NCBI RefSeq assembly: GCF_036588685.1
Contig: NC_086383.1
Location: 6,510,001 to 6,574,000 of the forward strand
Origin: Mytilus trossulus
Lineage: Eukaryota
Direction of reading: 5' to 3'
Length of the DNA stretch: 64,000 nt
Positions 12,072 through 61,197 of this stretch are shown here, one piece after another (the first letter of the stretch is position 1; the number at the start of each line of letters is the position of its first letter). Position numbers and translations under genes: made by a program. The notes under the pieces were generated by a model that saw only the letters and a list, made by a program, of their open reading frames with translations, did not search any database and had not been told where the DNA came from.

Positions 12072-13163
12072 TTAAGGAATCCACGATTGTGGAGTTGTTG
12101 CTGTAGAGTTAGGGAGGGAGCATTTGTGATAACTTTGATAAACTTTACTTCTATATGTAAATAACATTTTGAGTTCTTTCCGGAAGTATGCACCTGTAAT
12201 ACTGTACAGGAAAAAGTTAATGCAATAATTCATAAAAAATATTGTCTTTGTAAAATTCAACAAGTTTTGATTTGTTGGTACGAATACACTATCCTCCATT
12301 CTCATCGAACTCATCTGTAGAAAATGTTTGAACCATATAATGGCATATGGCGTGTTGAAAGCGATGAAGCAAAATGATATAGTTATCAAAATAACGGTAA
12401 ATTCTAATCGAATTATACTTTCCTCTGTTATAATTTTGACCTGTCGGTGTCTTTTGTTCCGAATTATTAACTTCCGAATGATCAATGTATTTAGTATTGT
12501 TATAATTAGAAATGGCAGAAATGTGATACACACTCCAAAAATACAGTCATAGATAAATGACAGGTACGTGTGCTCCAATCGTCTGGTGCATGATGGGACA
12601 TCATTTGGACCAACATATCTCACTTCACTTAGCCATGGTCGGAATGAAGCTATCACAAATGAGGTTATAACCGCAAAGAAAACGATTCGTTTTGAAGAAC
12701 GTAGGTTACAGACGTCCTTGCGCTTTAACGGGTGACAAACTCCAACATATCGTTCTAATGTGAAACATGCTACAAGCCAAGCTGAAAGGAAACGGAAAGA
12801 ATACGACATGAACATTATTATCTGACATACTCCATTACTTTCCAAAAAAGGAGCTGTTACCTGTCCGGAACCGATTGGTATTCCTTTTCTAATCCACTCA
12901 ACAAGGACATAAAATATCAATGCCATGATATCAGCTGTTGATAGTGCTGCAAGATATACACTTGCAGATAACTTCCTCATGTTTTTAGTTAGAAACACTA
13001 ATAAGGAAATTGTATTCCCGGTAATTCCTACAGCAAATATCACTGGGGTGACATATGTGAATACATCTGATCCAATTGACCCCTGGCCTGAGATGTGATT
13101 ATTTGTCCACTGGTCATCACATGTTGACCCATTTCCACATGATAAATATTTGGATTGGTTTAT
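12072..13163 (-). CDS. Class A (rhodopsin-like) peptide GPCR, FMRFamide/sex-peptide-receptor-like; main coding exon with all 7 TM helices
   Basis: GITGN (TM1), LSTAD (TM2), C...FTLERYVGVCHP (TM3), CFIAFNTPY (TM6), NYCINFFLY (TM7), N-terminal N-glycosylation sites NQS/NGS. Splice acceptor ttttttatttcag|ATA at 13164/13163, phase 0; the first 16 aa of the ORF-track call are probably intronic. Confidence 0.93.
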   Translation of the reverse strand: MNQSKYLSCGNGSTCDDQWTNNHISGQGSIGSDVFTYVTPVIFAVGITGNTISLLVFLTKNMRKLSASVYLAALSTADIMALIFYVLVEWIRKGIPIGSGQVTAPFLESNGVCQIIMFMSYSFRFLSAWLVACFTLERYVGVCHPLKRKDVCNLRSSKRIVFFAVITSFVIASFRPWLSEVRYVGPNDVPSCTRRLEHTYLSFIYDCIFGVCITFLPFLIITILNTLIIRKLIIRNKRHRQVKIITEESIIRLEFTVILITISFCFIAFNTPYAIIWFKHFLQMSSMRMEDSVFVPTNQNLLNFTKTIFFMNYCINFFLYSITGAYFRKELKMLFTYRSKVYQSYHKCSLPNSTATTPQSWIP

Positions 13164-19194: not shown

Positions 19195-22100
19195 CATGCA
19201 GTCCGTTTATTTACATTTTTGTTTGTTTCTAGAATATCATGTGTAGGTACACTTGAAATTGAACGTCAAAAAATCTAAACAAAGCTGAAAGACTATCAAA
19301 AGTGGGTCAATTGTGGGTCAAATCTTTATCGTACAAACGGAGTGGGAAAATACGTTTGTATTGCAAAATAACAAATTTTGTTAAAACAAAATGTGTCTCT
19401 GTTGTGTTTCCTGAATACATTTTCACTTATAGGTTATCTTTGAAATATATACAAAGTGATCATTTTGATTTGTTTTAGCTTTGGCCCTTTATACATGTTA
19501 TAAGGTACAACAATTTGTTAAACAAACCAGCACTCATACATCGTATATGTAGAATGCAGTGTGACAGATCAACATGCAAATATAGTCTTTACGTGTTCTT
19601 ATGTATCACAAATAGTTTCTTGTACCATTTGGTAATTTAACTTTAATCTTAGAATAATATGTACATGATGTATTTGTTTTTCTTAGTTCATCAATTACAC
19701 AATTTTGATATTCTTTTAAAAAAGAATATACTGTCCTTTATGTTCTAATGGCATAACAGTACTTTGTAACTTTATCATTAGACAATTTTGATTTTTTCTG
19801 CAGACAAAATACTACTGTCTTTCTAGTTAAACTATACATTAACTATATTATCATGGTTATATAAGACATTAATTGTTAAAACACCTCATTACCTTTATAT
19901 CTTTTATAAAGTCATTCAGAAAATCACGGATATAATTGTCTCTGTCATCTATTTTTTTTGTTTTCGAATTATTAATCAAGGGTAATCTGGTAATAAATAC
20001 AAATAGTTACAGCATAATTTGATGTATTCACTAGTGTGGTTATCACGACGAATATTTTATTTGTTAATGTATTGCCTAGTTCCATATTCCCGTTTAAAAG
20101 ACTGACGGTATAGACAATTCCATATATTTTCTGTCTATGAAAAGGTATAACTCAGATTGTTCATGGTTTAGTTAGTTTCCATAACTTTGTTTTTATCACA
20201 AACACGAATACTCATTTACCATGGAATACAATTTGAGACAACAATATTAGTTAAATGTTATTCAAGTTTAATCCACAGGCTCTGTTAATAAATCAGAGGC
20301 TATATATTCAATTTACTACAGCTAATAACCTTAAAACATATGTAATACTCAGATCAATGATCAACAAGACGTGTTACGTCTCTTATGAAGAAAAGATGCA
20401 ATCAATATAACTATATATATAATGTACCTCCGCTAAAATCGACCTATGTTTAATTAAATGATGCATACAAATTATTCACTTCAAAGCTGTATTGTGTACA
20501 TATAAAATGCCTTTGTATATAGTAAAGGCTCTATATTGTATGTATTAAACAAATAATAATAATACATATAACTAGTTTTTCGATTTTTTAAGCCTGAATA
20601 CGTTGCGTGCCTATTTTTTTTTGTATTCTTTTTTTCATTTGTTTTTCCGTCTTTTTTTTTTAAATATCTCAAACATGGTGTTTGTGCTTAATTGGAAAGC
20701 AACAATTTTTCAAAAGGTTTTTAAAATATGTTAAGGAACACAAAGAGGGAGTTTATTTAGTTTCATATTCGGATATTTCAACATTTTAGTATATGCCAGA
20801 TTTGTGCACTAAGGGGCAGTAGAGTATTTGTTTCACTAAGCAACTTCAATGTGTTGTGTCGTTCAATTTAAAGGTTAAGCTTGCTATACAACAAGGTTTA
20901 GTCCATCAATTTCTATATAAGAAGACATGTACTTAGACAGGATAAGTACAGTTGTAATCCATTTTTGTTACTTGTTTCAGCTTTGGAATGTAGTATTTGA
21001 TCAGGGATTTTCCATTTTGAAATTTCTTCTGACTTTGCTATTTTTGTATTTTTGTTTATGAGTAGAATTCAGTCGTAACGACTTTTAAACATGTTTTATT
21101 GGAACAACACAAGATTGATACCGCAAAATTAACTGATATTTAATTGACCAACAAGCGATTGATTGAATTTTCAACTATGATTTTGCAGAACGTAAACATC
21201 ATTTTTCTTTTACATGCAGTCCTTGTATTAACAATTTTTTATCTCTAGACTATCATGTTTAGGTACAAATGAAATTGAATGTCAAAAAGTCTAAACAAAG
21301 CTAAAAACTATCAAAAGTTGGTCAATTGTGGATAGGAAATAATGTTAAAGTGTACCATTATGCGGTTGTTATCTGTATACACGACATATAAGCACGACAA
21401 TTTGAAGAAAAAAACATATATTTAAATATATTTTGCACTTCACTTTATTATAGACATTTGAAAAAACGTCAGTATTGTAATATAAAACATTTTGTTAAAA
21501 CAAAATGTGTCTCTGTTGTGTTTCCTGAATACATTTTCACTTATAGGTTATCTTTGAAATATACACAAAGTGATCATTTTGATTTGTTTAAGCGTTGGTC
21601 CCTTATAAGGTACAAATATGTATTGAACACACCAGCATTCATACATCATATATGTAGAATGCAGTGTGACAGATCAACATGCAAATATGGTCTATACGGT
21701 TTCTTGTATAATAAAAATAGTGTCTTGTACCATTTGGTAATTTTATTTTAATCTTAGAATGATATATATGTTTTTTTTCTAAATTCAGCGATTAAACAAT
21801 TTTGATTCTTTAAAAAAAAAAGTACTGTCCTATATGTTGTTAAGGCATCAAGGTATTTTGTAACTTGATCATTCTCCTATTTTATTTCTTCAGAAGAACA
21901 AAAATAACACTGTCTTTCTAGTTAAACTAGACATGAATTATAGTATCATGATTATATAAGATATAAATAGCTAAAATAACTCCCTACCTTTATATCCTTT
22001 ATAAAGTCTTTCAGAAAATCACGGATATACTTGTCTCCGTCATCCATGTTTTGTTTCGAATTATTAATCAAGGGTAATGAATAGTTGTAGCAGAATTTGA

Positions 22101-25982: not shown

Positions 25983-26040
25983 CAGTTTGACCGACTTTTA
26001 AACGTAAATAACTTCGGTGTAAACAGCTAGTATATTCATC

Positions 26041-34137: not shown

Positions 34138-34435
34138 GAAAGAGGGACGAAAGGTACAAAAGGGACAGTAAAACTCATACATCGAAAATAAACTGACAAC
34201 GTCATAGCTAAAAATGAAAAAGACAAACAGACAAACAATAGTACACATGACACAACATTGAAAACTACAGAATAAACAACACGAACCCAACCAAAACTTA
34301 GGGGTTAGCTCAGGTGCTCCGGAAGAGTAAGAATATACTGCTCCTCATGTGGCACCCGTCGTGTTGATTATTTGATAACAAATCCGATAAATAGTCTAAT
34401 TAACAGGTCACATTCATGACATGAAAGGGGATTGT
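34138..34435 (-). repeat. Copy of Penelope-like 3' UTR-derived repeat
   Basis: Reverse-complement match to 42530-42790 (ggtgctccggaag, tggcacccgtcgtgtt); another copy at ~52540-52715. Confidence 0.65.
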
Positions 34436-37400: not shown

Positions 37401-39660
37401 GGGTTGAGATCTCATATACATGTTTAACCACGCCGCAATTTTGCGCCTGTCCCAAGTCAGGAGCCTCTGACCTTTGTTAGTCTTGTATGAATTTTAATTT
37501 AAGTTTCTTGTTTATAACTGGGAATTTAGTATGACATACATTATCACTGTGGTTGTAATCATAGTTTTACGGGGCCAGCCGAAGGACGCCTAAGGGTGCG
37601 TGAGTTTATGCTGCATTGAAGACCCATTATTGGCATTTGGCTGTTGTCTGCTAGATATTGTCGGGTTGTTGTCAATTTTATCATATTGGGAAATCCTCTA
37701 GGATGTAATGCAAGTTGAAAAAAAAAAATTGAGAATGGAAATGGGGAATGTGTCAAAGAGACAACAACCCGACCAAATAAAAAAAAACAACAGCAGAAGG
37801 TCACCAACAGGTCTTCAATGTAGCGAGAAATTCCCGAAACCCGGAGGCGTCCTTTGGCTGGCCCTTAACAAATATATACTAGTTCAGTAATAATGGACGC
37901 CATACTAATTTCCAAGAAGACTTTTTTATGACATAAAAGCCGAGGATACCTAAGAGAGTAAATATGACGTCCGATTTTTTTATTTTATTTCTAAATAATT
38001 CATAAGGTTACAGCAATTTGGACCATGTAGTATGTATCTAAAGATTCTTGGTCTCATGTTTATATATACAAAATTTGCCTTTTCGGCTTAAAATTTTGAA
38101 TCAGACGACCATTTAAACTGATAAATGGTATTATAGATGCATGAAGACATTCAATTAGTAAATGTTTCACACAGTCCAATATTATCAAATATATTAAACG
38201 GGCTAAGACGCACCTGATACTCAATCAAGAGTGTAGGAAATTTAGTTTTCTAATAATAAGAACGATTGTGATTTTGACAAATGTTTACTTTAAACATAAA
38301 ATTCGGTCTATAAACAAAGAATTACAGCAATGAAAAAATAATTTCGATGTAATACAAATTGAAGGTTTTATTATAATATGATGTTATCAGAGGAGGATCA
38401 AAGAAATCATTATATCATGTATGCCTTCTTTATTTGTACTTATGGCTTATTGAAAACAATACAATCTTAAATCAGAATAACTTTGACGTCTTATTCCTTC
38501 ATTTGTTCTCTCCAAAAAATACCTTTGTGTAAAAGATAAGTACAGAAAACGAAATAATTATTTCAAACGCTTTCAAGAAAATTGAGCAAACTAAACAATC
38601 GACTAAACGACAAAACAAAAAAAAAACATTAAAGGACGACGCAATATGAACTACACGAAAAACATTTGTCATCTGAGCTACTTTATGTGCGGGCGTAGTC
38701 CCTGCGTTCCATGTTACACCCGTCGTGTTGCACTAGTGAAAGGATATTTACTTGCCGAATGTTGTCTTATTTGCAAATATCCAAATAGCATGAATGGACA
38801 TTGTAAGTCTTTATCACATACACCATGTTACCTGTTTGCTCTATAGGAAGTATTAAGGTCGTGTTTAAACGTTTAACTTTTTATAATCAGTAACTATGAA
38901 TGATATATCATGTCAGTAGAGAAAGTATAGTATACTTTGCAGTCATGTGTGTTTTTGTCTATAGAATAATTTCCATAAAGACATTACATATCATTAGTTA
39001 ATTAGATCATCAGAATGTTTAAATTCGAAACACTAAGGGTTTTCTATTCCAGGAATAAGAGCTGTATGTAGTTGATTATTTATATTATTATTTTCATCTA
39101 TCATTGCTCTGGAAATGTGTATATAATTAGACGTTCCATGCGTATTGCTTTAAATACATCTGATGATTATAATCCATATGCAACGTGCATCGGTCATAAC
39201 ATATTACAACCCTGGTATCTTAATGAGCTTTGGAAAGATATACAATTGGGATAGAAAGTCTATAATTAAAATATTTAGTTTGACATCGTTTGTACTTAAT
39301 GACATTTTATCCTACTGTGCTGCTATATCAGAGAATGCAGTCACAACGCTTTTATTATTAATTAAGTATGCAAAACAAGATAAACCATTATTAATATGGT
39401 TCAAACGTTCCATTACACAAGTAATTATTTGCTGTTAAATTATACAGCAATTGATTATTCATACTGTGCTACTTAGATAGAATTACGTAGATATTACTAG
39501 AAGTTACCGTAATTTTTTTTTATGATTCAATTATTGAAGATGAAAAGAAATGATATATATATATACTGCAATTTGGCAGCACATCGACGCCAAACAAAAG
39601 AACAAAATAATCATCATCTCTATATAAAGTTGTATTATACAAAATAAAACAACAGCCTAG

Positions 39661-40804: not shown

Positions 40805-40867
40805 CTTAATTTCATTAATGAAGTCATACAGAAAATCCTGAATGTAATTGGTGCCTTTCGTCATCAT
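40805..40867 (-). CDS. Candidate first coding exon of the GPCR (MMTKGTNYIQDFLYDFINEIK)
   Basis: ATGATG preceded by in-frame TAG, 21 codons ending AAG|GTAAGA (phase 0 donor) compatible with the phase 0 acceptor at 13163; TATATAAG on the minus strand at 40957-40964. No transcript evidence. Confidence 0.5.
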
Positions 40868-44740: not shown

Positions 44741-45082
44741 TGCTACAATGCACTTTTTGGCAAAAGTCAAATTAAATTAAAGATTTGCACCGCTTCAAAC
44801 ATGAAATAAATGAAACTGCTTAAAGACCATTTTTATTTAAAAAGTGAGCTTCTATGACCATTCATCAGTAATTTTCCTTCTGAGAGCCCTATTAGCATGT
44901 CAATGATAGGATTTGAATCTCGTATAAATGACAAAGGCTCATTTAAGGGGTCGCATGAGGGGGCAATATCCCGAATTCCCGGACTTACAAACACGAAATC
45001 CCGAAGTGTGTATTTTAACGAAATCCATATCCCGACATCCCAAAATTAAAACAAAACTACTTTCACTTTAAACAATATATGT

Positions 45083-45454
45083 GATTGCCCATTTATGGGA
45101 ATTATGATTTCTAGTCTGTTCGTTTGTTCTTCTGTCCTTCCGTCCGGTTTCAGGTTAAAGTTTTCACTTTCAACTATACATTGTTATGCCCTATTTATGG
45201 AAATAATGTTTCCTAGTCTGTTCGTTCGTTCGTTCGTCTGTCCGTCTGTCCCGCTTTAGGTTGAAGTTTTTGTCGAGGTAGACTTTGGTGAATTTGAAAT
45301 CCAACCAAACAGAAACTTAGTAAATGTGTTTCCTGCTGTAGGATCTTCCTAATTTGAATGCCAAATTAGACATTTTACCCCATTTCACGGTTCACTTAAC
45401 CTAGTAAAAGATAGTGCCGATGTGGCATCCGTATACTATAGACACATTCTTGTT
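45083..45454 (+). mobile_element. Non-autonomous Helentron/DINE-1-like element with partial 5' duplication
   Basis: ttatgccc start, (gttc)n/(gtcc)n microsatellite, subterminal inverted ggcat and 3' gacacattcttgttt end. Confidence 0.55.
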
Positions 45455-45638
45455 TCCACATGTTTTACTTATTTCAATATTTGTGCAACTGGTATGACCC
45501 CTTAGATAGTAAATATTTCAGAAAAAAGTAGACAGAATACAGTCTCTGTATATTATAGTAGTATAATGTTCCTTCATCCAAGCATATCTTGGATGTGCAG
45601 GATGAAGGTCATTCTTAGAATATGAGCCTGAGGCTCGA

Positions 45639-45786
45639 AAGTAATGAATTAGCTTAACTTCTCTATGAGGGATGAAGTTAACATGTAATATCTCTGTTTA
45701 AAGAAACGAACTATAGCCATCGGACTATAGATAGCCAGTGACCTTGACCCTAGTATATAAGCACCTGTTCCATAATAACTCGTCAT
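45639..45786. repeat. DIRS 3' inverted terminal repeat
   Basis: Reverse complement of 50881-51028 with one mismatch (45717 vs 50950). Confidence 0.95.
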
Positions 45787-45866
45787 AATTTAAAGCAAGT
45801 TTGTGTCGACCAAAAAACTCATAAAAAAAGGGTGGGTCTAACTCATAATCCCTAGGGTGGGAATTA

Positions 45867-45990
45867 ATTACTTTCGAGCCTCAGGCTCATATTCTAAGAA
45901 TGACCTTCATCCTGCACATCCAAGATATGCTTGGATGAAGGAACATTCTTATTCATATTTCGCCTTCGGTCTCAAGTAATGAATTAGCTT
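45867..45990. other. DIRS internal complementary region (ICR)
   Basis: 45867-45947 is the reverse complement of terminus 45565-45645; 45945-45990 is the reverse complement of terminus 51012-51057; the two overlap at ATT (45945-45947). Confidence 0.95.
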
Positions 45991-46065
45991 GTTTAAAGTG
46001 TAGACACAAACTAAAAACAAAAGCATACAAATGCAACATTTAATAAAGCTTAAACAAATACAAGA

Positions 46066-47073
46066 TCAAGCATTAATAACTGCAGAAGCAAAGTCTGTAT
46101 TGCCAATATCATTAAATTCTCTGTTATAAAACTTATAAAATGTATTAGCACATGTCCAATTAGCTGTTGCCATAATGTCTTTCACAGAACATCCAGAAGC
46201 TAACGCAGCTGAAGTAGAGGCACCTCTAAATGAATGTGCCTTGAAAATGTTAATATCTATGCCCACTAAAAGTAACACGGTTTTTAACCATCTAGATAAC
46301 GTAGAAGTAGAAACTTTACGAAAAGTTGCATAAGAAATGAATAAACTAGAAGTCTTCCTGACATCTCTTGTACGTAAAACATAATTAATCAATGTCTTCA
46401 CCACGCAAAGTTCTGGTTTAACAAAACGCTTAAACACCACATTAGGCAGACTAAAACCAGGTCTAGTAGTTTTCAAAAGTTCCTGTATATGTAACACTAT
46501 AATCCCTTGTCTTTGACTAAAAGACATAAAATTTAAATCTAGTGCTGATATAGATTGTGCTCTAGCAGCTGTGGTCAAAGCAACTAAAGCTACAAGTTTA
46601 AAAGTCAAATTTTTCAATGTTAAATCCTCCAAAGGATATAAAGAACTCAAGAACGAAAGTACTAAATTTACATCCCAAGTGAAAGAGTATCTTGCTCTTG
46701 GCGGATTCAGGTTAAAGCAACCTTTCAACATACGTTCAACAAAAACAAATTTAGTAACCTCTACTCCAAAAAAGGATAAAGTCTGTGTCAACATTGACCG
46801 AGTAGTATTTAACACTGAATATGAAAAGTTACTGTTTTTCAAAAAATTTAAATAATCTATTACATCCTTTTCAGATGGTCGAAAATAATTGGTTTTCCTT
46901 TGAACACACCAAATAACGAATTTTCTCCAAGAATATTGGTATTGCTTGATTGTAGAAGGTCTCCAAGATGCAATGATGACATCTGCAGATGATTCTGAAA
47001 ATCCTCTATCAAGTAACGATTTCCGGATACAATACACACGGTTAAACTTAGTCTCTTCCTTAATGGATGGCAT
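46066..47073 (-). CDS. DIRS tyrosine recombinase (335 aa)
   Basis: N-terminal core-binding region (WRPSTIKQY...W) and catalytic residues AAR, LKT, HSFR, ANW, FYKFY; overlaps the end of pol. Confidence 0.95.
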   Translation of the reverse strand: MPSIKEETKFNRVYCIRKSLLDRGFSESSADVIIASWRPSTIKQYQYSWRKFVIWCVQRKTNYFRPSEKDVIDYLNFLKNSNFSYSVLNTTRSMLTQTLSFFGVEVTKFVFVERMLKGCFNLNPPRARYSFTWDVNLVLSFLSSLYPLEDLTLKNLTFKLVALVALTTAARAQSISALDLNFMSFSQRQGIIVLHIQELLKTTRPGFSLPNVVFKRFVKPELCVVKTLINYVLRTRDVRKTSSLFISYATFRKVSTSTLSRWLKTVLLLVGIDINIFKAHSFRGASTSAALASGCSVKDIMATANWTCANTFYKFYNREFNDIGNTDFASAVINA

Positions 47074-49034
47074 TCTCCTGTATGCGGCATCATTACTAAA
47101 TCTTTGTGTTGAGGCAGTCTAACTGGCAAAGAAATTAACATTGGTATTAGTAAAGAAAACCAACTTTGTGCAGGCCAAAATGGAATAATCAAAATAGCCT
47201 TCTCAACCTTGTCACTTAAAATTTTCATTAAAATTTTCCCCAACAAAGTAAAAGGTGGGAAAATATATGGTCTAAAATTAGACCATGAAATAGTAAAAGC
47301 ATCAACATAAGTAGCTTGTGGGTCAAATGACCATGATGCAAATCTAGGGACCTGAAAATTCAAACGTGAAGCAAACAAATCAACGTTTGGAACAAAGAAA
47401 TGTTTACAAATTCTATCAAATATTTCTACTTTCAATTGCCACTCTGTGGAATCTGTAAAATTTCTAGACATATGATCAGCATCAAAATTTTCTATTCCAG
47501 GAATATACTGAGCTGTGATAAAAATATCTCTTTCTGAACACCAAGCCCAAATCTCTGCAGCAAGCCTGTCAAGTGACAATGAGGCCATGCCTCCCATTTC
47601 ATTAATATAAGCTACTGCAGTAGTATTGTCTGATCGTATACCAATATGGCATGACTTTTTGTGACTAAAAAATGCTCTTAAAGAGAAAAATATAGCCAAC
47701 AATTCTAAGAAGTTTATATGAAAAGAGCGTTCTGACAAGCTCCATCTACCACCAGCAAATTGTCCTTCAAAATTAGTTCCCCAACCTTCTAATGAAGCGT
47801 CTGTTTCAATCCAAAAGTTAATTTGTATGGGTCTTATCAGTTTTCCATTCTCAGATCTTAAATTGTTAACCCACCAAAAGATTTCAGTTCTTGACTCTTG
47901 TGTGATAAAAATTTTTGAGTCAAAATCACCATGACAACTATTCAGTGCTCCCACTTTATTTCTCTCCATGTTTCTGTAATGAAGTGGTCCCACAGATACT
48001 GCATTAAAAGCATGTACCACAAGACCAATAAATGATGCAAAGCATCTTACAGTAACACACTTCTGTTGAAGAATAGTTTTCCCAAGGGAGATAATTTTAT
48101 TCAATTTCTCATCTGTCAGAAAAATCTTAAATAACTCAGTATCAATAATGAGACCAAAGAAAACAATGCGTTTTGAAGGAATAAGGACAGACTTCTTAGT
48201 ATTAATTCTGAAACCAAGTTCATCAAACTTCTGCACCATTTTTTCTGTATTTACAATACAACTTTCTAAATTCTGATCCATAACAAGAGAATCATCAATG
48301 TAATAAATACATCTAATGCCATTTTTCCGAAAAAATGCATAAACAGGTTTTAAAACCTTAGTAAAAACTCTTGGTGCAGAAGCCAATCCAAAACAAAGAA
48401 CCTGAAATTCATATAAATGTCCTTTCCACATGAAACGCAAATATCTCTTAAAGTCATTATTTATACTTATACTAAAATAAGCATCTGTGAGATCTATGGA
48501 TGTTAGATAATCATCCTTCTGAATTACATCTAAAACAAATGATAAATGTTCTTGTTTAAAATGATGATAAGCCACAAAATTGTTTAAATATTTTAAATTG
48601 ATAACAGGCCTTGAAGACCCATCTTTCTTAGGAACTAAGAAAATATTGGAAATAAACTGGTTCTCCAATGATTCAACTTTTTTAATAGCTCCCTTAGCCA
48701 ATAATTTTTGGACTTCTTCTGAAATAATTTCAATCTTGTGAACAGGGAAATGTATTTCATGCATAAAAGATGAAGCTTGTGGCTCAACATCAAATTCAAT
48801 TTTATAACCATTTCTAACTGTATCTAATATCCATAGATCACTTGTAATACTTTCCCATACGGGATAATTAAGTTCTCTCACCTTAACTATTGTCGATAAT
48901 GGTTGTTCTGGTTGAACCCTCTCTGAGAGTTGTGACCTCTTTGGGACCCTCTGTTCCCTGTCTGGAAACCTCTCCCTCTGCCTCTGAGGGAGGGGAATTG
49001 TCGTCCGCCCTGTCGACCGACAGGGCCTCTGGAG
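46860..49034 (-). CDS. DIRS pol: reverse transcriptase, RNase H and Dam-like adenine methyltransferase domain; no ATG at its start, frame open up to 49055
   Basis: RPVINLK, DLTDAYF, FGLASAPRVF, YIDD (RT); TDASLEGWG, HINFLEL, SDNTTAV, ADHMSR (RNase H); DLFAS...DAF...YIFPPF (MT). The ORF-track start at 48881 is GTG. Confidence 0.93.
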   Translation of the reverse strand, partial: LQRPCRSTGRTTIPLPQRQRERFPDREQRVPKRSQLSERVQPEQPLSTIVKVRELNYPVWESITSDLWILDTVRNGYKIEFDVEPQASSFMHEIHFPVHKIEIISEEVQKLLAKGAIKKVESLENQFISNIFLVPKKDGSSRPVINLKYLNNFVAYHHFKQEHLSFVLDVIQKDDYLTSIDLTDAYFSISINNDFKRYLRFMWKGHLYEFQVLCFGLASAPRVFTKVLKPVYAFFRKNGIRCIYYIDDSLVMDQNLESCIVNTEKMVQKFDELGFRINTKKSVLIPSKRIVFFGLIIDTELFKIFLTDEKLNKIISLGKTILQQKCVTVRCFASFIGLVVHAFNAVSVGPLHYRNMERNKVGALNSCHGDFDSKIFITQESRTEIFWWVNNLRSENGKLIRPIQINFWIETDASLEGWGTNFEGQFAGGRWSLSERSFHINFLELLAIFFSLRAFFSHKKSCHIGIRSDNTTAVAYINEMGGMASLSLDRLAAEIWAWCSERDIFITAQYIPGIENFDADHMSRNFTDSTEWQLKVEIFDRICKHFFVPNVDLFASRLNFQVPRFASWSFDPQATYVDAFTISWSNFRPYIFPPFTLLGKILMKILSDKVEKAILIIPFWPAQSWFSLLIPMLISLPVRLPQHKDLVMMPHTGECHPLRKRLSLTVCIVSGNRYLIEDFQNHLQMSSLHLGDLLQSSNTNILGENSLFGVFKGKPIIFDHLKRM

Positions 49035-50398
49035 TTTAAAGACTGATAATGGTCTCTACTAAAGTTGCTTGGAGCACTAAAGTTGTTGGACCTAGATCCT
49101 CTACCTAGGAATCTAGGACTAGCTATTGGAATCTTGGTGTAGTCACCAAGTTCCTTCATCTGCTTCATGCAGTCAGCCCCAAAGAGTGATGAATCCACCG
49201 GTACATCAGAATTACATATAGGTTTAAACTTGTCATTAAAATAAGGTCTAAGTGCTGAGCGTCTCCTCTGTGTCAGAGAGAGAAAACCATGGCCTAACAA
49301 ACAAATAGAGTCAGACAAAAGCTTTCTAGTGTTGTCGACATTTAAAGGCTCATTCCTACAGCACTGATTGGCCAACTGAACAATAGGGGTCAACCCCTTA
49401 ACAAAATATCTTTGAGTTTCTTGCATTTTGGAATCAACAGTGTGGGCCTGTCTAGGCAAAGCGGTCCAAATCTCCTTATTGACCCTAGGAACACAAAGGT
49501 TCTCACAATTTTCTGGCCGTAAATATCTCTCCTCGATCAATTTAATACTCTCGTAATTTGATTTAACCGACATTGCAGCATTAACAGCCTTTGAAAGCCC
49601 AGAAGATAATTTTGGCCCAGTCTTCTCTTCAGTATTCAACTGTGGGATTTCCCAATCAAAATCATATTGTTCACCCTGTTCAACAACAGGTTGAGAAAGT
49701 GGTACATTAACCTCACTAAGAGGAGCCCTAAAGGCATTAGAAAACCCTAGGGCTGGGTCAAAAGAAGTGTCAAAATCAACTGGTGCTGGACTGTCATCAG
49801 CCCTAGCAGAGACTCCAGAAGGAGGTAAATATACTGGATCCTCCAAGTAATCCATATCAAAATCCTGAACAGAATCTGTATTTAAATTAGCATCTAAAGG
49901 CAAAATTTGAGTGTTAGAGGATACAGCAGCAGGGTTAACAACCTCTGCTTGAATGGAAGACTGTGAAACTGTCTCACACCTAGGGGCCCTTACAGGCTCT
50001 TTCCCACAATTATTAATAAATCCTCTAAAAAGATGAGTCAAAGTGTCAATTGACTTGCCCATTGTAGATATGCCCATTTTATCCCTCAACACTGATAATT
50101 CCTCAGGAGATAAATCCTCAACTCTAGGAGATTTAGTGGCTTTACTAGTAGCACTAGTAGCCTTAGCTTTCCTTTTGACTGATTTAGGTGCCTTGTCACT
50201 CGAAATGGCAGTGCCTTTTATAATTCTATTAGGCTTTTTAGGAGGTTTATTGACACTACCTCTAGTTTTCCTATTCAAATCATCATTTTTTATTTCATTA
50301 GCAACATACAGATGCTGAAAATCATAGCCATCGGCTTCATTATCAATATCATTTTCATCATGCAAAAGCAAAACATCTTCATTTTCAGACTCAGTCAT
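48887..50398 (-). CDS. DIRS gag-like ORF1 (503 aa)
   Basis: First ORF of the element; RPENCENLCVPRVNKEIW core and RG-rich basic C-terminus. Confidence 0.88.
   Translation of the reverse strand: MTESENEDVLLLHDENDIDNEADGYDFQHLYVANEIKNDDLNRKTRGSVNKPPKKPNRIIKGTAISSDKAPKSVKRKAKATSATSKATKSPRVEDLSPEELSVLRDKMGISTMGKSIDTLTHLFRGFINNCGKEPVRAPRCETVSQSSIQAEVVNPAAVSSNTQILPLDANLNTDSVQDFDMDYLEDPVYLPPSGVSARADDSPAPVDFDTSFDPALGFSNAFRAPLSEVNVPLSQPVVEQGEQYDFDWEIPQLNTEEKTGPKLSSGLSKAVNAAMSVKSNYESIKLIEERYLRPENCENLCVPRVNKEIWTALPRQAHTVDSKMQETQRYFVKGLTPIVQLANQCCRNEPLNVDNTRKLLSDSICLLGHGFLSLTQRRRSALRPYFNDKFKPICNSDVPVDSSLFGADCMKQMKELGDYTKIPIASPRFLGRGSRSNNFSAPSNFSRDHYQSLNSRGPVGRQGGRQFPSLRGRGRGFQTGNRGSQRGHNSQRGFNQNNHYRQ
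49007..49040 (-). promoter_or_regulatory. Predicted -1 programmed ribosomal frameshift signal (U UUA AAC + 7-nt spacer + GC-rich hairpin)
   Basis: Gag frame TCT TTA AAC; the -1 frame TTT AAA CTC is the pol frame; hairpin GCCCTGTC-GGTC-GACAGGGC at 49026-49007. Confidence 0.8.
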
Positions 50399-50545
50399 TT
50401 TAAAAGTTTGAATAATATAACGTGTACCTGTGCAGGTAAAACACGTGCTAAACCTGAAGAGTACAAGCGACCTTCAGTTAAAGAGAAATACACCTGTAAT
50501 TATCTACCTGTTTAACAAACAGGAGTAAAATAACAAACTAACAAC

Positions 50546-50751
50546 TTGCCGTACTACGTAGGCAAAAACTTTAATGAAAAAACTTGTCATACAACGTAGA
50601 CAATATTTATTTATTTATTTACAACAACACTTGTCGTACAACGTAGACAAGAAATTCGTTATTTCTAATTAATATCAACACTTGTCGTACCTCGTAGACA
50701 AGAAATTCTTTATCTAATTAATATCAACACTTGTCGTACCTCGTAGACAAG
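50546..50751 (-). repeat. Five-copy bulged stem-loop array in DIRS leader
   Basis: (C)UUGUC-UAC-GNN-GUA-Y-GACAA(G) at 50546, 50584, 50630, 50681, 50730. Confidence 0.85.
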
Positions 50752-50879
50752 AAATTCTTTAATTCTCAAGACAATGGGATTTAAGAAACTTGGAAAAAAT
50801 AACTTACCAACCAAAAAAACTAAAACTATTAAGAAAAATAACTGTGAAGTAAGTGGTTACTTCACCCCTCTAGAAAAAT

Positions 50880-50928
50880 AATGACGAGTTATTATGGAAC
50901 AGGTGCTTATATACTAGGGTCAAGGTCA
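50880..50928 (-). promoter_or_regulatory. Predicted DIRS core promoter (TATA at -31, Inr TCATT, adjacent DR0-like motif)
   Basis: TATATAAG 50913-50906; TCATT with A at 50882; GGGTCAAGGTCA at 50917-50928 (plus strand). Confidence 0.6.
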
Positions 50929-51028
50929 CTGGCTATCTATAGTCCGATGACTATAGTTCGTTTCTTTAAACAGAGATATTACATGTTAACTTCATCCCTC
51001 ATAGAGAAGTTAAGCTAATTCATTACTT
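50881..51028. repeat. DIRS 5' inverted terminal repeat
   Basis: Reverse complement of 45639-45786. Confidence 0.95.
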
Positions 51029-51145
51029 GAGACCGAAGGCGAAATATGAATAAGAATCGTAGTTTACATGTGGATCAATGTGAAAACATAATTGTCTCTA
51101 AGGGGGTATAATAGGTGTGAGTCTTGCGATCTAAAAACCATGATA

Positions 51146-51597
51146 TGGTCCGAGTACACAGTTATTTCGTAGTGCATTTCTTTTAGACAATAAATGTAAA
51201 TAAAAAAAATCCCACCTGCGCTTCCTCAATAACATGTTTACAGTATGTTGTACTACTTTTGGGACAAATTATATCAAATTTATAGAAAACTTCATCAGCT
51301 CTAACTCAAAATATGGACAATTTTGTGTTAAGGGGGTCATGAAATCTTTTGACAGCTTCCGAAGTGCTAATTTTTGACCTTTTTCAGCTGAACCTAATCA
51401 CTACTTTACCTTAATATTTATGACCCAAATTTTTTTACAGTGTCATTTCACCCCCAACTTGCTATATGAGGCATAAAACATGAAGAATTAAATTTGGAAG
51501 GGGTATAACAAAAATTGGCAAGTAACACACTGTCCACATTAAGGACTATATTTGTGGACAACGAAAATCAAAGGACGATAACTCTGTACTCGGACCA
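51146..51597. mobile_element. MITE / non-autonomous DNA transposon with TIRs and TA flanks
   Basis: TA|TGGTCCGAGTACACAGTTAT ... ATAACTCTGTACTCGGACCA|TA. Confidence 0.85.
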
Positions 51598-53885
51598 TAT
51601 GGAGAACGCTCTGATTGGCTTATTTATTTTTCATGTTTAGTTATCTAGCATACGATTGGTTGTTCTTGTGCATGTTTAAAACCGGTCTTTTCTTTGAATA
51701 AAAGTCAGTCTGAATACGGAAACAATATCCGGACAACTGTGTTGTCGTTTTTCTCCCAAAAAAACTGAATCGGAATTTTCATTAGAATGGAGAACACATC
51801 GACTTGATGATTAATTTATTATGGAAGGAAGAGAAGCGACATACAACTTAAGGTTTCCTCGTTTAATAGTAAAGATACCCACTCACTTTGTTTTTTTACC
51901 AACTTCTGGAGTAGTTGGTTAATTGATTCATTGTGATTTCTATATTCATCAACCGACAATTTGATATGTTTAAGTGAAGATTATTATTCATTCCCGTAAT
52001 TGTTCTCAGATCTGTAATTGTAATGAAACAGTTAACCTTTCCATTTGAATTTTTGTTGAAAGATAACATGAAATTAACACTAGTACAGATTCTTGAAGAT
52101 TTCAAATTTGAAGAATTTTCCTTTAGAAAATTTCAAAGGACATCCAATCAATTAATAGTATTGCAATTATATTCTCCCCCTTCACTCATTATACAAGTTT
52201 GGAAAAAAAAAGATATGATTTGAATATTATAATGTATTTTAATGAACTATTTTGGGCTTTTTGCGGTTTATCTTTGATATTTTTGTATTATTTTTGTCAA
52301 TGTAACCCCCTTCTTCTGGATATTATATCCGACATGACGAGTTATGTGATATTGCAGCTAATTAACAACATACATGTATCACTACGTTCAAGTTGTATTT
52401 GTGTTGTTTTTGAAGAATTTGCTGATCGTATAATATCATTGAATGATAAAGACACGTTAATGTTACACTATTGACTAACGTTAGTACAGTTAGTTGCGAA
52501 ATAAAACCAGCATACAAACTTATATTTGTATTTTGGTATGTAAAAGAGGGACAAAAGATACCAAAGGGAGAGTCAAACTCATAAATCTAAAGCAAACTGA
52601 CAACGCCAAGGCTACAAATGAAAACGACACACAGAAAACCCATAGCACACATGACACACCATAGAAAACTACAGAATAAACAACACGAACCCCACCAGAA
52701 ACTAGGGGTGATTTAGGGATGAGGTGAACAAAACTGATTTTAGAAAGGAGAATCACAATCAATGAAACTCATCAGTGATAAATAACTGACAATCTGTCAT
52801 GCTAATAAATTGTATGTATTATTGACATAAGACCTTAACCAACGTAGCATAAAATTCAAAAGTATAAAATTAATATGTCTCATGCACAGTTCTGTTGTGT
52901 GTGCTTGTCTTAATACACTCCGAGAAAGGTCTTAATTATCACATTCCACATTTAAATTGTGGACAATTTCAGGACAACATTGACTGTCTTCCGTCAACTC
53001 ATAAACACAACATTATACTTGGCTGACGTAAAGCAATTCCTGATAAGTCTCCTATTTAGGAACAGGCATATGAAAATATGGAGTTTTTTTTGGTCCTATG
53101 TTTGTATAGCATTTGCAAATAGTTCATCTTTTATTTATTCGATCAACAGCTAGGAACATGTATTGTTGGAACGTGCTTTTTGTTCTGTAAAATGAGAACC
53201 GTCATTGTTATTGATACATGTATCTATAGGATCCATTTCAGTAAATGAACAATGAAAAAAAACGCGGTTTGTGAAACAGCTGTATTTACACAAAGCAACC
53301 TATGAATAGATATATTATTCTTGATAAAATACTTGGATAAATAACTTTAAATAGTTTATGGATGTTTAACTTTCTTATACATACTAATTTCGCGGATACG
53401 GTGAGTTGTGTTATGACCGCTAATGAGGATACCATCAATTCAAGCATACCTATATCTACAAAATCTAAACGAATTAAAGCTCAATCGAAGAATGATATTG
53501 ATAGAAAAATAAAGAAGGCTGTTAATGCACATACGAGATATAGGTATGGAAAATCCGTTTTAAAACCCGCTTGTACTCCCACAAATCCCAAGAAATAAAT
53601 GCTTAATAATCAGATCTTTAAGATTTCATACACGGACGAATAGCTTAAGTGTATAATAGTGTACGTAATGTCCTTATTTCACAATTGTTCTTATTAGAAA
53701 GGTTTAATAGCTGGTATGTCGAATGTTCCAAACTATGTTTGTGATTATGTACCCAAAAACATACAAGATAAATGACTCATTCAATAGTTTTACTTTCTTC
53801 AATATGTTTCTAGAATTGACATTTGAAAATAAACTCATCATAGATAGCAGGATCAGTATTTTATAGTTACGACTGTTAATCAATT

Positions 53886-54097: not shown

Positions 54098-56459
54098 TTA
54101 TTCATTTTTCATCATTTATATTTAAAAACAGACCAATTGATATACATAAATGCGTACATATGTGACAAATGTGTGATACGTACATATATACAAATCAAAC
54201 ACATTACTAATTAGTGACAAACGTTACATTTTTGAGATTTTGTCTAACATATTAATTAGGAAAACTGCTTACACCGACACTATATAATATTTTATGATGG
54301 CCACTTTGGTTGACCGTTGCGATATATTTTCGCACACAGATCTTACTATGCAATACAAGATAGGCAACATATAGGAAAGGGATTTTCAAACTCTTAATGA
54401 ATATGTGCATAGCTTGATTGTATTTTATGAGTGATGTTCTTTGAATTTTACATTAGTACATCATTTCCAGAAACATGTAGGTTTGTATGTTGTCCATTGT
54501 ATATGTTTCAAACTGCGGAGGATGAATTGGTAATATCATATTAATTTTGAATATCAGTATTTATTATGAAACATATGTGTTAACTAACTTTGATTATTCT
54601 CTTGAAATATAGCTAAATTACATTATACTTAACCTATTTACACTAGTAGAACTAATAAATTCAGTTTGATACGTTGTGTTATAATTTCAAACTGTATATA
54701 TCAATCCTAAGTATTCTTGTAAAAACGAATTAAAACTAATTTTCCTACCTCCAAATACGGGATAAATTAGCTCCCACTGCTTTATTCTAATCAGTAGATG
54801 ATGTGTTTTCCTAGGGCAGTAATTCTTTCATTGTCATGAATAATTATTATCAAATCACATTCTTTTCACTTTTTATTACAAATTCAATTATACACTATGT
54901 CTATTTCTAAATATATTATTCTAATATTTCATATTGACGAAGGGCACACAAAAATAAGGCTTAATAGTTAACAAAATGAAAATGTTTCAAAATATGTTAA
55001 GTTTGCTCTAGTATTTCAGTTTTTTTGTTATCTTTATGAAGCATTACCGTTTTGTCTTGTGTCGATTATAATTTTTTTTTTATTTACAAGGCACAACTTG
55101 GTTTTCTTTTGTGGGAATATCAAGACATGTTTAGCATGCTCACAGTCACGCAACTTTCCGATGAACTGAAACAGTGGAGACAAAGTACAACATTAAGCTT
55201 AATGTTTAAAACACGACGATTAGTGTTCACTGAACATATTTATACAACTGAGAAAAGTACAAAGTACGTATGTAATTATATTTTGATTATTGATATATAT
55301 AGATTCTACCACTGCATAGAGTGTGATATGATATTTATTCACTCGAGACAGTTTAATTTTCAAATATTTAAAATTTAAGAGTGGATACATATCGTATTAC
55401 ACGAGATTTGGTGGTGAAATATGTCTCTCTAATGATTTTCTAACATTATGCAGGCCAACCTATTCTTTCTTGTCGAATAATCTACAAAAAGATGTGTTCC
55501 TTTTATGTGACGTCATCAGGCATGGTCGTCTTTTTTCATGCCGTCACAGAAGGAATTTCAGAGGAAAGCAAGAAATTTGACGTCATAATCGGATTTAAAC
55601 CGATGAAGTACTGACATAAAACGAACCACACGTTTTTTTTATACAATGGGTACAGAAAGGGATAAGTTGACGAGAAATTAGAGAAACTAATATTTATAAT
55701 ATGTTTGCCTGACAAATATTAACTTGGTTTGATAACTGATTCACCTTTTATTTTCCGAAATGGCTAGGAGGAAATGTTGAACTAAAAGTATTTCATCCAT
55801 ACATAAGTGATTTATACAAATATGAATATGGAAATTCCTACATCCTACATACAATATATAAACTGTGATTAAATAAAAAAAAGTAGATTTCAGTTTTAAA
55901 TTCCCTTTCGATATTTTCATTTACAAAAAAAAAAGGAAAACAAGATAACTTGAAAACAAAGCAACTTGGTACTCGGAGAAAGAGTAAGGTGGGTATTTTT
56001 CCATCAATCTACTGAATCCAATATTATAAAAAAAAATTAAAAAAAGATATTTGTCTGCAGCATTATATATTATGTTGTTATTTAGAGCATATGCCACATA
56101 AATCACCAGATATACTTTAAGAGGTTAAATGACTGTCTGGTACAATCTACATTTGTATTGTATAAGCTGGTTGTATCGATTTCCATTATGAGATAATGTT
56201 GATATGAACGCGACACTTGTCATCATACAGTGACTTTAGGTGGTGTTCATATAATAAATCATTTAATAATTCTCAACCAGTTTCAATTCATATAAAAATC
56301 CCACAAAGAGTCGTCTAAATTTTTGTTCATTCACATTCGTCGACTTTCAATCAAACCATTGTGACTAATTTTATCATAATGAGGCAGAAGTATGCACTTA
56401 TGTTTTTTTCGGATCACATCACTCTCTCAAATCAATTTAATAAAAACAAAACCTGAAGA

Positions 56460-59400
56460 ACAATACGTAAAAGGCTATAGATTCTAGTAATTGAGGCCAA
56501 TAACGTTAAAACATATGTAACACTCAGATCAATGACCAACAAGACGTTTGACGTATCTTATGAGGAAATGAAGAAATGAGTTAAACAATATACCAACATT
56601 TGTATATGTTATCTGCCACCGCGTAAAGCAACTTCGTTTTACTGAATGTTGGATTGCGTTTCAAGTGAAATTTCACATGTCGTTTGGAGGTATATACTGA
56701 TTTTTTATTTATATTCTGTATGATCCATGATGAAACTGCAACATCTTTTAGTCAAGTTCCTTATCAGAGGATCTGACATCAATAGTTCAAATCTCACCAT
56801 TTGTTTTTTATAACGCTTTAATTTCAACAAATGAATAACAAAGTATGTTTTCAAATGTTAACAGTACATCTTTAGTAGGGATTTAATTTGATATGCGATG
56901 AAATTATTGACAGGACAGGTAAAACTTGTATTTTTGTTGGTTTTACAATTACATATACTGTATGCGTACTAATATCACGAAAAAAAAATTCCGTGTGAAA
57001 TGAATAAACATCTAATGGTGTATGTTTCTTAAAATCATTCTGCATTGTTAAGGTTGTTTGAGTATTAAACGATAAACTACCGAGTGCTGCTTTAACCGTT
57101 TGGTTATCAGTATAACTGTTGTTCATTGGCCACGATCGAAAACTGATAAAGTTTTGTAATTGAAAATCATACCACATCTGTTTTGTAAATACTATTATTG
57201 GCTTTCTCTGTCTGAGCTTGTCCAACTACGGTTATAATTCGTGCTATTCTGTTTGATCTTTAACTCACTTTGTACATTCAAACTACTATTTCTCATATAC
57301 ATCTGTAAACGTGGTATTATCGTGTACCCTATTCCATATTTCAGGAATACTTAGTACATTTGTATAAATCATTTGAAAATAGTTTTCTTTATCAGAATAA
57401 ACAACACATCGTGAATCCAATTCGACTGGTTTTATTCACTAAATATATGACAATAAGTGCTACTGCACATTATGGTATTATGTGACATATTGTCTGATTA
57501 ATGAGGAAAAAGACTCTTCTTAAGTATTTGTTTAATAAGGATATAACAATATGTTTCCAAATATAGTTTTTAATTGTCATCAGAAATGTGTAATATTTGT
57601 CTTTTGAAATTATAAAGATACTATATTACAACATGTATAAAGAATAAAAGGATAAAGTCAAGTAACTGTTTATAGTCAAAATAACGTAAATGTTTTTAAC
57701 AATGGATGTAAACTAATTAACAACAAATTACAAAATGTTAATACGAACATACTTGTGGGTGACAAACCAACTACAAAACAATATGATTGACTTGAATAAA
57801 CGAGCAAAAAATACAGGAATACAGTCTCCTCAATTTGGTAAATTTGACAAAGTGAATAATAAATTCTTGAAAAATAGCTTGATGGAATTGTTAAAATACC
57901 ACATGCTAAAACGACTGTTCTGATTCAGTGTGCTGGAATATTCAATCCTTGAATTAAACAACAATATCCAAAAAAAATCCTTTCTTTAGATAATTTGTTT
58001 TCCTCTTTTATCTGTTGATAACATTCCAGTGCTATGTCGTTGCCTGACATTCGGTTGAAGAGTATATGGTATCACTGCCGATGAGTATTATAAATGATCG
58101 TGTCAAATGGTCAGAGAATAATTGAGAAAAAATCGTAAATCTTTAAAAAAACATCTTTTATCGAGTTATGTAATGCCTGGTGGTACTGTTTGCCTAATTC
58201 ATTTTACTAATCCTGTAAAAAAATTACAAAAAAGTGTCTGTGAGCTAAAGTAATACAAGGCATTGTCATTGTTATAGAGCACTCTATTTTACTTATGACT
58301 TACAACAACTACATTCTATTTCAAAAAGGGACAAATATGAGAGGGATTAACAATGTGTTAATTTTTGTTTTGCAATTTTACATCTTACACAATAGGTTAA
58401 GTCGTATTTTTTTTCTATCAAATATAACACGAGAAAAGAACATAAAAAACCCACATGCTTCAAAAGTACAAAAGACTATGAATTCAACTAGTTAAAACTA
58501 ATAACGTTAAAACATATGTAATTCTCAGATGAAGGATCCACAAGACGCATGACGTCTCTAATGAACAAAAGAGTCAATCAATTTGAAATACGTATTCTGC
58601 TTTCGCTTTTAATTTTTTCTGTTAAATTGAATGGTGCATAAATTATATGAGCTCTGATATTGCTCTATGTATACCAACAGATTCCGTTCCAGCTAAAATG
58701 TGTAATATATAGACTAAATTGGCAGAGTCTTTGTATTGATATGATTCTTGTTACATCTTCCTGTCGAAGCTATTTTTGTTTTGTTTGTTCTGATAAAAGT
58801 AAATCAGAGTTAAGGTAAATTATGCCTTTTGAAATTTAATGTCGACATCTTTTACGTCATGTCTACATCATAATTTGTTTGATGTGTGTGAACTTTTGAT
58901 TTTGCTTTTGATAAGGGCCTTTACTTTAAAAACTTTCTTCGGAGTTCAGCATCTTTCGTAATTTTACTTTTGATTTATTTTCTTCCAATTACCGTTAAAG
59001 GGTCATATATGAAAGTCTCTATCAATAAAATAGCAATGAAACCAATTAAGAGATATTTGCATTGTATTTGAAACTTTGAGGACGTACATCAATAGCTTAA
59101 CTGTCTCACATTTAGTTTACCTGGCGACCCGTAACTGAGATAGCAAAACTATAACAGGGCACCCACAAAGCTTCAACTGCAATACATTTATATCTATTAT
59201 AATGCAAAACAAGTACATAATTCAATTTCAGTGAAAAATGTGAATTTACCAAAATTCCGTGAAAAAAGATGTTATCTTCTTTGGCCCAAAACTACGTGAC
59301 GTCATAGGTATGTTTTCGACATCACACGTAATCAACTAGCGTGTTCTGTTTCCTTGACCGCCTTATAATGTAAATATAATTTGATAAAAGAAAATGCTAG

Positions 59401-61150: not shown

Positions 61151-61197
61151 TAATCTCTAACACTAATGCAATCGAGTGTCTGCTAAATATACTAATA

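Follow-up and report, generated by a model that had tools for sequence, protein, structure and literature searches.

Is the retrotransposon-like sequence in a 64,000-nucleotide (nt) stretch of the Mytilus trossulus genome (contig NC_086383.1, positions 6,510,001 to 6,574,000 of the forward strand; hereafter, the window) a complete element, and if so, how would it make its proteins and copy itself? A preliminary description had called it an apparently intact, very recently inserted DIRS1 element. Positions given below are those of the window, and all features of the element lie on the minus strand. We found that the element (45565..51057; 5,493 bp, ATT...ATT) belongs to DIRS1, as every testable feature that defines the group is present: a gag-like first open reading frame (ORF1), a reverse transcriptase (RT) with a YIDD motif followed by RNase H, a methyltransferase-like domain, a tyrosine recombinase, inverted terminal repeats (ITRs) with a right extension, and an internal complementary region (ICR). 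As the residues needed for catalysis by RT, RNase H and recombinase are also present, the element deserves to be called intact. We put at about 85% the probability that it is a complete, young, autonomous-looking DIRS1-like tyrosine-recombinase retrotransposon of a Mytilus mussel. It is an ordinary, complete DIRS1 copy; such copies, with a junction that can be read, are usual in the group and have been recorded in molluscs. Its one less ordinary trait is a ribosome-slippage signal that it shares with many relatives and that probably accounts for the production of its RT.

Ends, repeats and circle junction

The ICR (124 bp; 45867..45990) spells the end-to-end junction of the element. As claimed previously, it is exactly complementary to 81 bp at the right end (45565-45645) and to 46 bp at the left end (51012-51057). 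Because both matches stop precisely at the element termini, we consider the boundaries exact to the base. ATT is read directly at the 5' terminus (51055..51057) and again at the other end (45565-45567), and the AAT overlap of the ICR lies at 45945-45947. On the forward strand the flanks read gtagtat|AAT and AAT|cgtagtt; elsewhere in the window, AAT accounts for 4% of positions. The host sequence around the element is contiguous and holds no N.

The left terminus (51012..51057), which pairs exactly with one half of the ICR, begins with an outer 29 bp that correspond to the 'divergent ITR'. The left conserved ITR (148 bp; 50881..51028) differs from the right conserved ITR (148 bp; 45639..45786) by one mismatch, in agreement with the earlier count, and the right copy carries the same TATA-like box as the left one, directed back into the element. 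An alternative repeat search returned an ITR of 153 nt with a second mismatch at its inner edge. The right divergent ITR and the right extension of ~45 bp together fill 45565..45638. The only exact direct repeat common to the ICR and a terminus is 17 nt long. Inspection by eye revealed no inverted arms for recombinase binding on either side of the junction, and no likeness between flank and junction beyond AAT. Rfam gave 0 matches in 45400-51200.

The preliminary description had also presented the circle junction as fully resolvable. The junction can indeed be read from the ICR; this is the rule in the superfamily rather than something special to this copy, as Table 3 of PMC3266345 indicates. 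The same holds for three related loci (L001, L003 and L004), whose ICRs are 97.5-100% matched to their own ends. At L003 (4430-9326), which lies amid microsatellites in low-coding sequence, the element ends are TTG and GTG and the ICR junction is TTG, one terminal base off, the outcome expected of a crossover with an imperfectly matching target.

We considered two other classes of element and set both aside. In Ngaro-like or PAT-like tyrosine-recombinase elements the terminal repeats are split direct repeats, whereas here they are inverted. A long terminal repeat (LTR) retrotransposon of the Ty3/Gypsy type was rejected for its lack of fit: there are no direct LTRs, and the RT is Ty3-like in fold only.

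Coding capacity

The element contains three uninterrupted ORFs, as described before; stop to stop on the minus strand, they are open for 528, 731 and 350 codons. ORF1 (48887..50398; stop-to-stop 48887-50473) is gag-like, with 503 amino acids (aa) from its ATG and an RG-rich C-terminus. It matched no Pfam family, and its N-terminal half was assigned no fold; it shares 35% identity over 148 aa with ORF1 of another DIRS locus, L002 (E 4e-28).

ORF2 (46860..49055), or pol, encodes RT, RNase H and a PCIF1-like methyltransferase domain in 731 codons stop to stop. It carries the RT residues D129 and YIDD (193-196), the RNase H residues D360, E392, D417 and D468 (numbering from 48878), and the methyltransferase motifs DLFAS and YIFPPF. 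Pfam identified RVT_1 above the cut-off (E 7.5e-20), and a search with pol found 1,266 homologues with E values of 1e-20 or lower, of which the best reach 65-66% identity. Its predicted structure (pLDDT 86) matches Ty3 RT (Z 22.1, root-mean-square deviation [rmsd] 7.7, 353 aligned residues) and RNase H (Z 15.3, rmsd 2.7, 119 aligned). A sequence search of the PDB with the pol alignment returned only RTs among the 60 matches listed.

The methyltransferase domain is weak by Pfam alone (E 0.046-0.073). In the structural comparison, residues 476-672 match the cap adenosine methyltransferase CAPAM (6irx; Z 10.1, rmsd 3.3, 147 aligned), the best fold match of pol outside RT and RNase H, and several rRNA adenine methylases score Z 8-9. 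Among the aligned pol proteins, 24/32 match the PCIF1 family and 12/32 match Dam, and all 32 have F at the first position of FPPF, where active enzymes carry N or D. This domain is probably not a DNA methylase. The link between the DIRS methyltransferase and PCIF1 is known, and PMC4738411, in the part drawn on here, describes the DIRS copies as 'likely inactive'. FPPF in a PCIF1/CAPAM-clade domain fits that description, unlike the NPP that most eukaryotic DAM domains retain according to the sections used here of a 2026 preprint, which also reports no activity in E. coli (bioRxiv 10.64898/2026.05.21.726589).

ORF3 (46066..47073; stop-to-stop 46066-47118, 350 codons) encodes a tyrosine recombinase of 335 aa from its ATG and overlaps pol by up to 259 nt. 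Residues R171, K201, H280, R283, W306 and Y316 are invariant across 31 aligned proteins; we take them to be the catalytic six, by analogy with Cre. The Pfam match to Phage_integrase stays under the cut-off (23.8 versus 27.1 bits), and the predicted structure (pLDDT 92) matches Cre recombinase (E 1.2e-11, TM 0.68). Neither protein departs unusually far from its family: pol deviates at 9/191 conserved columns, where family members do so at 1-16 with a median of 6, and the recombinase at 5/51, against 1-8 with a median of 3; none of these positions is catalytic. No DDE integrase or protease appeared in Pfam or fold searches, which gave the N-terminal half of ORF1 no assignment.

A candidate -1 frameshift signal between gag and pol

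How pol is translated is a question for DIRS elements in general, as their pol is often without a start codon. In the mussel element, pol lies in the -1 frame relative to gag, with an overlap of 166-169 nt, and its first in-frame ATG is found only at 48764, downstream of conserved pol residues 8-33. Programmed -1 frameshifting in retroviruses, LTR retrotransposons and coronaviruses uses a cassette made up of a slippery heptamer of the form X XXY YYZ, a spacer of 5-9 nt and a downstream structure. We found a canonical heptamer of this kind, U UUA AAC, in gag phase within the gag/pol overlap (49034..49040). It is followed after 7 nt by an 8-bp, G+C-rich hairpin (49007..49026), a candidate frameshift stimulator that folds with z -2.58, as well as which only 2/200 shuffles fold (z -1.57 on a 45-nt window). 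The arrangement resembles the retroviral, LTR-retrotransposon and coronaviral cassettes in having UUUAAAC in the upstream frame, a 7-nt spacer, a stable hairpin and a polymerase ORF in -1; it differs in that this putative cassette belongs to a tyrosine-recombinase element.

Because the mussel heptamer taken alone is weak, we tested the heptamers of relatives. The test drew on 33 of 52 loci, the excluded ones being same-place repeats, partial or broken matches, or unrelated. Together with the mussel copy this gave 34 elements, 16 with a -1 overlap and 12 with a +1 overlap; among the other 6, pol was open far upstream or off the contig in 3, and 3 that had no spanning upstream ORF were dropped. 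An in-phase canonical heptamer was present in 11/16 of the -1 elements, compared with 2.1 expected from shuffles, and 0/200,000 simulations reached 11. In the other two phases, the same elements carried 2 and 0 heptamers. No +1 element had one (0/12; -1 versus +1, P 2.5e-4). Measured against the elements' own upstream gag, the expectation was 1.7, and 13/136 tiled windows of the same length scored (Fisher P 4e-7). Without the mussel element, the heptamer was still found in 10/15 of the -1 elements. The heptamers are of five kinds, and RT identity to the nearest neighbour is only 47-61% for the 15 of them that are in the tree. In the RT tree, the -1 and +1 arrangements sort by clade, with one in-frame fusion within each; gag and pol share a single frame in L005 and L029.

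We also noted a DIRS clade (L039-L049, L051, L004 and L006) in which pol is +1 to gag; its members mostly have neither an ATG nor -1 heptamers. Where the 12 +1 overlaps end, no conserved motif was evident by eye.

Taken together, these data suggest that the mussel pol is made by -1 frameshifting, a reading of the sequence that we regard as probable. Several observations weigh against it. No canonical heptamer is present in 5/16 of the -1 elements, and a downstream structure with z < -1 accompanies only 4/11 of the heptamers (mean z -0.62). As for the mussel copy itself, 9.5-11% of shuffled overlaps contain a heptamer, its gag carries 3 further in-phase heptamers outside the overlap, and 3/8 of its upstream windows score. 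The sample is also uneven, 11/16 of the -1 elements coming from a single source (G185). Finally, a donor-like AAG|GTGAGA and a GTG codon at 48881 offer other possible routes to pol.

The last point leads to an alternative, namely that pol is expressed from a spliced RNA, from a non-AUG start (the GTG at 48881) or by re-initiation at 48764, with the heptamer incidental. Besides the donor-like site at 48881, the donor-like and acceptor-like sites of the leader would accord with such expression, as would the -1 elements that lack a heptamer and the 4/16 in which an ATG precedes the pol core. Moreover, 8/12 of the +1 elements also have no such ATG, yet show no -1 signal. Against this, the enrichment of heptamers is specific to one phase and limited to -1 elements; re-initiation at 48764 would lose conserved pol residues; and a splice donor at 48881 would take pol away rather than provide it. 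We therefore judge expression by splicing or an alternative start to be improbable in comparison with -1 frameshifting.

With more reserve, as a proposal that we rate somewhat short of even odds, the tree and the heptamers may reflect a wider pattern: one RT clade of animal DIRS1 would make Gag-Pol by -1 frameshifting at canonical heptamers, its sister clade, with pol in +1, would use another mechanism, and each would include a single in-frame fusion. DIRS1 elements would then have repeated the gag-pol strategies of LTR retrotransposons, and it is part of the proposal that this would have no earlier demonstration. Our literature search found no description of gag-pol frameshifting for DIRS1; the main reviews (Poulter and Goodwin 2005; Poulter and Butler 2015) lay outside that search and may well propose it. 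Pol translation is not discussed in the passages of the main text of PMC3266345 used here. For the Ngaro recombinase ORF, a -1 frameshift has been proposed (Poulter and Butler 2015, quoted in PMC13003380); for gag-pol, the quoting passage contains no such proposal.

A frameshift signal would offer a testable answer to the translation of DIRS pol and would set the ratio of Gag to RT. If the proposal is true, the mussel copy, with its UUUAAAC and hairpin, would lend itself directly to a test and would be a currently segregating insertion as well.

Predicted transcription and a proposed replication cycle

The left ITR contains a TATA-like box (TATATAAG; 50906..50913). An initiator-like TCATT follows 31 nt downstream, and its A (50882) sits 1 base inside the inner border of that ITR. 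From these motifs we predict a transcription start at ~50882. An initiator-like motif was found 1-9 bases from the inner ITR border in 4/4 left ITRs examined, at a background of 1.3-2% per site. Counting against the prediction, a TATA-like box is present in only 1/3 of the relatives' left ITRs, and we discarded the idea that such a box is generally present at this border.

The leader downstream of this predicted start contains a 49-nt tandem repeat (50582..50761; 3.7 copies, 2 of them identical). A consensus donor (G|GTAAGT) at 50807 and acceptor-like sites at 50454 and 50427 (the latter by eye) enclose these repeats and two upstream ATGs. An intron in the 5' untranslated region of the element is thus possible.

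Two RNA structures stand out. The ICR folds into a single long hairpin (z -7.69, 0/200 shuffles), and the last 50 nt of the element form another (z -4.87, 0/300 shuffles). Hairpins at the 3' end also occur in L001 (z -3.32) and L004 (z -2.62). A 3' hairpin has been suggested as a primer for Dictyostelium DIRS-1; weighing against a general role, the hairpin is found in 3/4 elements, L003 being without it (z -0.31, corrected end).

These features can be arranged into a cycle modelled on that of the family. RNA polymerase II would start at the inner border of the left ITR (~50882), as the motifs suggest, and produce an RNA that lacks the left end. Gag (503 aa) would be the main product, in line with the comparative data, and a share of ribosomes would slip -1 at UUUAAAC (49040-49034) to yield a Gag-RT-RNase H-methyltransferase fusion of ~1,180 aa, by coordinate arithmetic. 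The recombinase would probably be a separate product from its own ATG (47073). The RNA would then be copied into single-stranded complementary DNA (cDNA), for which the 3' hairpin is a possible primer. The right ITR would serve to restore the left one and the ICR to restore both ends, and the resulting junction would read ...GAATAAG-AAT-GTTCC.... Last, the double-stranded circle would be integrated by the recombinase, which would cross the junction AAT with a genomic AAT and thereby leave AAT at both ends.

The latter steps follow the Cappello-type family model, in which most of the left repeat is missing from the RNA, and the right repeat and the ICR are used to restore the ends. The model is summarised in PMC7192593, in a part that also reports a requirement for the ICR in Dictyostelium DIRS-1. 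The same source provides the evidence that argues against a circle: the cDNA of Dictyostelium was mostly linear, and inverse polymerase chain reaction (PCR) missed the junction. For that reason the circle is still a model.

Age, probable polymorphism and possible mobility of the insertion

The preliminary description had called the insertion very recent. Since each cycle resets the identity of ITRs and ICR under the family model, the single mismatch dates the insertion as young. Divergence is 1/148 between the ITRs (0.68%; 95% confidence interval [CI] 0.02-3.8%) and 1/269 over all paired bases (0.37%; 95% CI 0.01-2.1%). The three open ORFs give a 5% bound on decay of 1.3% from substitutions alone and of 0.3-0.75% under assumed indel rates. 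From these sequence measures the element is very likely young, with under ~1.5% decay. A divergence of 0.4-0.7% and open ORFs thus favour recency, which is nevertheless loosely bounded, the upper limits reaching 2-4%.

Comparison with the host gives these numbers a scale. In M. galloprovincialis, according to the part of PMC7653742 used here, heterozygosity is 1.73% and 36.78% of the assembly is hemizygous. The insertion appears younger than typical mussel allele divergence and is therefore probably not fixed; we consider a polymorphic site reasonably likely. We expect with considerable confidence that the empty site, as deduced from the flanks, will have the sequence predicted earlier, with a single AAT (gtagtat-AAT-cgtagtt). 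Insertion polymorphism is to be expected in mussels and hence would be unremarkable. The value of the locus lies elsewhere: the experimental study of target choice by a DIRS recombinase is described as untried in the part of PMC7192593 cited here, and a young copy with base-exact ends allows the trinucleotide-crossover model to be tested with one PCR.

As a caution, the upper bounds on divergence (2.1-3.8%) lie above the heterozygosity of mussels, which leaves room for fixation. The same element could be intact through youth and yet be fixed or near-fixed and silent, no longer polymorphic or mobile, owing to small RNAs or methylation. Such a history would agree with the ITR mismatch that is present and its CI of up to 3.8%. 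It would also agree with how common intact copies are: 19/25 pol matches in G185 have no stop, and ITRs are 100% identical in L004 and L005 and 98.5% identical in L003 despite a stop in its pol. In Dictyostelium, DIRS-1 is tightly silenced by RNA interference (PMC7192593, in the part cited). The point estimates of 0.4-0.7%, however, are lower than the heterozygosity of 1.73%, and hemizygous sequence is widespread in mussels. On balance we find a silent, fixed insertion unlikely and prefer a young, segregating one. Whether this copy is still mobile is more doubtful, and we incline towards a negative answer.

Could the clean appearance of the element be a product of assembly? Multi-copy repeats may be homogenised in assemblies, and collapse or polishing could make ITRs, ICR and ORFs look cleaner than those of real copies. 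The contiguous, N-free host sequence, the base-exact ends and the one retained ITR mismatch all speak against this, and we regard an artefact as extremely unlikely.

Searches for the locus in other data were mostly negative. In metagenome contigs, a 26-nt right-flank pattern gave 0 matches and the pol query, with 38 candidates, gave 0 relatives. The pol alignment and a terminus pattern found 0 in viral contigs, and the element flanks have no paralogue within the window. Sequencing runs did share words with a 9.5-kb stretch around the element: the shared fraction was 0.40-0.69 in 20 runs from 9 studies, under four organism labels plus a gill metagenome. That stretch is 58% element and 42% flank, and 18/20 runs exceed 0.42, which would require element words if words are evenly spread; we drew no conclusion about the site or about horizontal transfer. 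The 24 runs listed by this DNA-type search included no RNA run.

The neighbouring receptor gene

The preliminary description had placed the element ~4.6 kb upstream of the first exon of a candidate G-protein-coupled receptor (GPCR) gene. The main coding exon of this rhodopsin-family GPCR (12072..13163, minus strand) encodes 363 residues, 363/363 identical to those of an M. trossulus record (P0421), and shares 96-97% identity with proteins of M. edulis and M. galloprovincialis, which identifies the host as a Mytilus mussel. Upstream of this single main exon, the first coding exon, of 20 codons, occurs four times in tandem in the window, always on the minus strand and with a GT donor behind it. 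In the copy at 19893-19952, ATA replaces ATG, and it is the best match for P0419 (19/20). The copy at 21988..22047 is the one used by P0421, the closest database protein (20/20). The copy at 30320-30379 is the best for P0121 (19/20), and it is the copy to which the M. galloprovincialis model comes nearest (19/20). The copy nearest the element (40805..40864) is the most divergent of the four, with 12-13/20 residues shared with Mytilus models, and has a TATA-like box 100 nt upstream. The copies may represent alternative promoters or be remnants of a tandem duplication of the gene.

The distance and strand given earlier were correct, as the element lies 4,701 bp from the ATG at 40864 and ~4.6 kb from the TATA-like box of that exon, on the same strand. 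The exon concerned is one of four copies, though, and the least typical. One might suppose that the element is a regulatory insertion with a promoter or enhancer effect on this exon, given their shared strand, the 4.7 kb between them, and the ATG, GT donor and TATA-like box of the exon; read-through from the left-ITR promoter would head toward 40864. The exon is nevertheless the most divergent copy, the closest protein uses the copy at 22047, which lies 23.5 kb from the element, and both ITR promoter motifs point into the element, not outward. A regulatory role is thus very unlikely.

Other repeats were noted in the window. Nested local duplications of 70-93% identity (~19300-31700, and 33400-39500 versus 56400-61200) lie around the GPCR first exons and flank the DIRS element. 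Close to the 5' end of the element (86 bp away), a pair of 23-bp inverted repeats (96%) 412 bp apart occupies 51143-51600 and resembles a miniature inverted-repeat transposable element. Two 102-bp tandem units with a tetranucleotide-like tract (45061-45270) stand 300 bp from its 3' end; we take these to resemble a non-autonomous mussel repeat. The window starts with an array of a 351-bp tandem repeat (69-1393; 3.8 copies, 98% matches), and near its other end a decayed pair of ORFs (63238-63624) looks by eye like a Tc1/mariner transposase fragment.

Comparison with known systems

A relative of the element is found in the same genus: the Mytilus coruscus protein P0250 (CAC5385901.1) shares 79-94% amino-acid identity with it over four stretches of pol and recombinase, so the same lineage is present in another Mytilus species. 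P0250, publicly named 'Tyr recombinase', is a gene model stitched from the pol and recombinase frames of a DIRS relative. Our search of the literature on DIRS in Mytilus, and on full-length or recently active DIRS in bivalves, found no description of a Mytilus DIRS family in the parts of the papers it returned. DIRS elements have been reported from bivalves at low copy number (PMC10294476), and putatively functional DIRS copies are described as common in Xenopus (PMC9210276), each in the portion of the source used here.

Complete or near-complete DIRS elements also occur in genomes filed as bacterial (L001-L007, and L028-L052 in G185, which has 25 pol matches). They are most likely host DNA binned with symbionts, and such copies could mislead claims of prokaryotic DIRS.

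Against Dictyostelium DIRS-1, as described in the part of PMC7192593 on which we draw, the mussel element likewise has inverted repeats, an ICR that spells the junction, a promoter (here a predicted one) in the left repeat and a 3' terminal hairpin. DIRS-1 differs in its longer ITR (304 bp), TTA ends, 88-bp ICR and clustering at centromeres. Mobility is proven for DIRS-1, whereas the steps set out above for the mussel element are a model.

The element also resembles the DIRS1 elements of molluscs. For AcaDIRS1 and AcaDIRS2 of Aplysia and LgDIRS1-3 of Lottia, the tables and descriptions used from PMC3266345 (Piednoel et al. 2011) give lengths of 4.7-5.8 kb, three ORFs without a long overlap, ATT termini in 4/5, right extensions of 46-49 bp and ICR halves of 39-46 and 67-88 bp. 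Like the mussel element, they have YIDD, H-S-x-R and a short motif common to both ITRs and both ICR halves; the mussel element differs in having HSFR in place of HSTR. The sizes of its repeats (divergent ITR ~29 bp, conserved ITR 148 bp, extension ~45 bp, ICR 46-81) come near those of AcaDIRS1 (ICR 45-88, extension 48) and LgDIRS2 (conserved ITR 141, ICR 46-67). Compared by description, its conserved ITR of 148 bp resembles the 141 bp of LgDIRS2, not the 31-36 bp of the other four mollusc elements.

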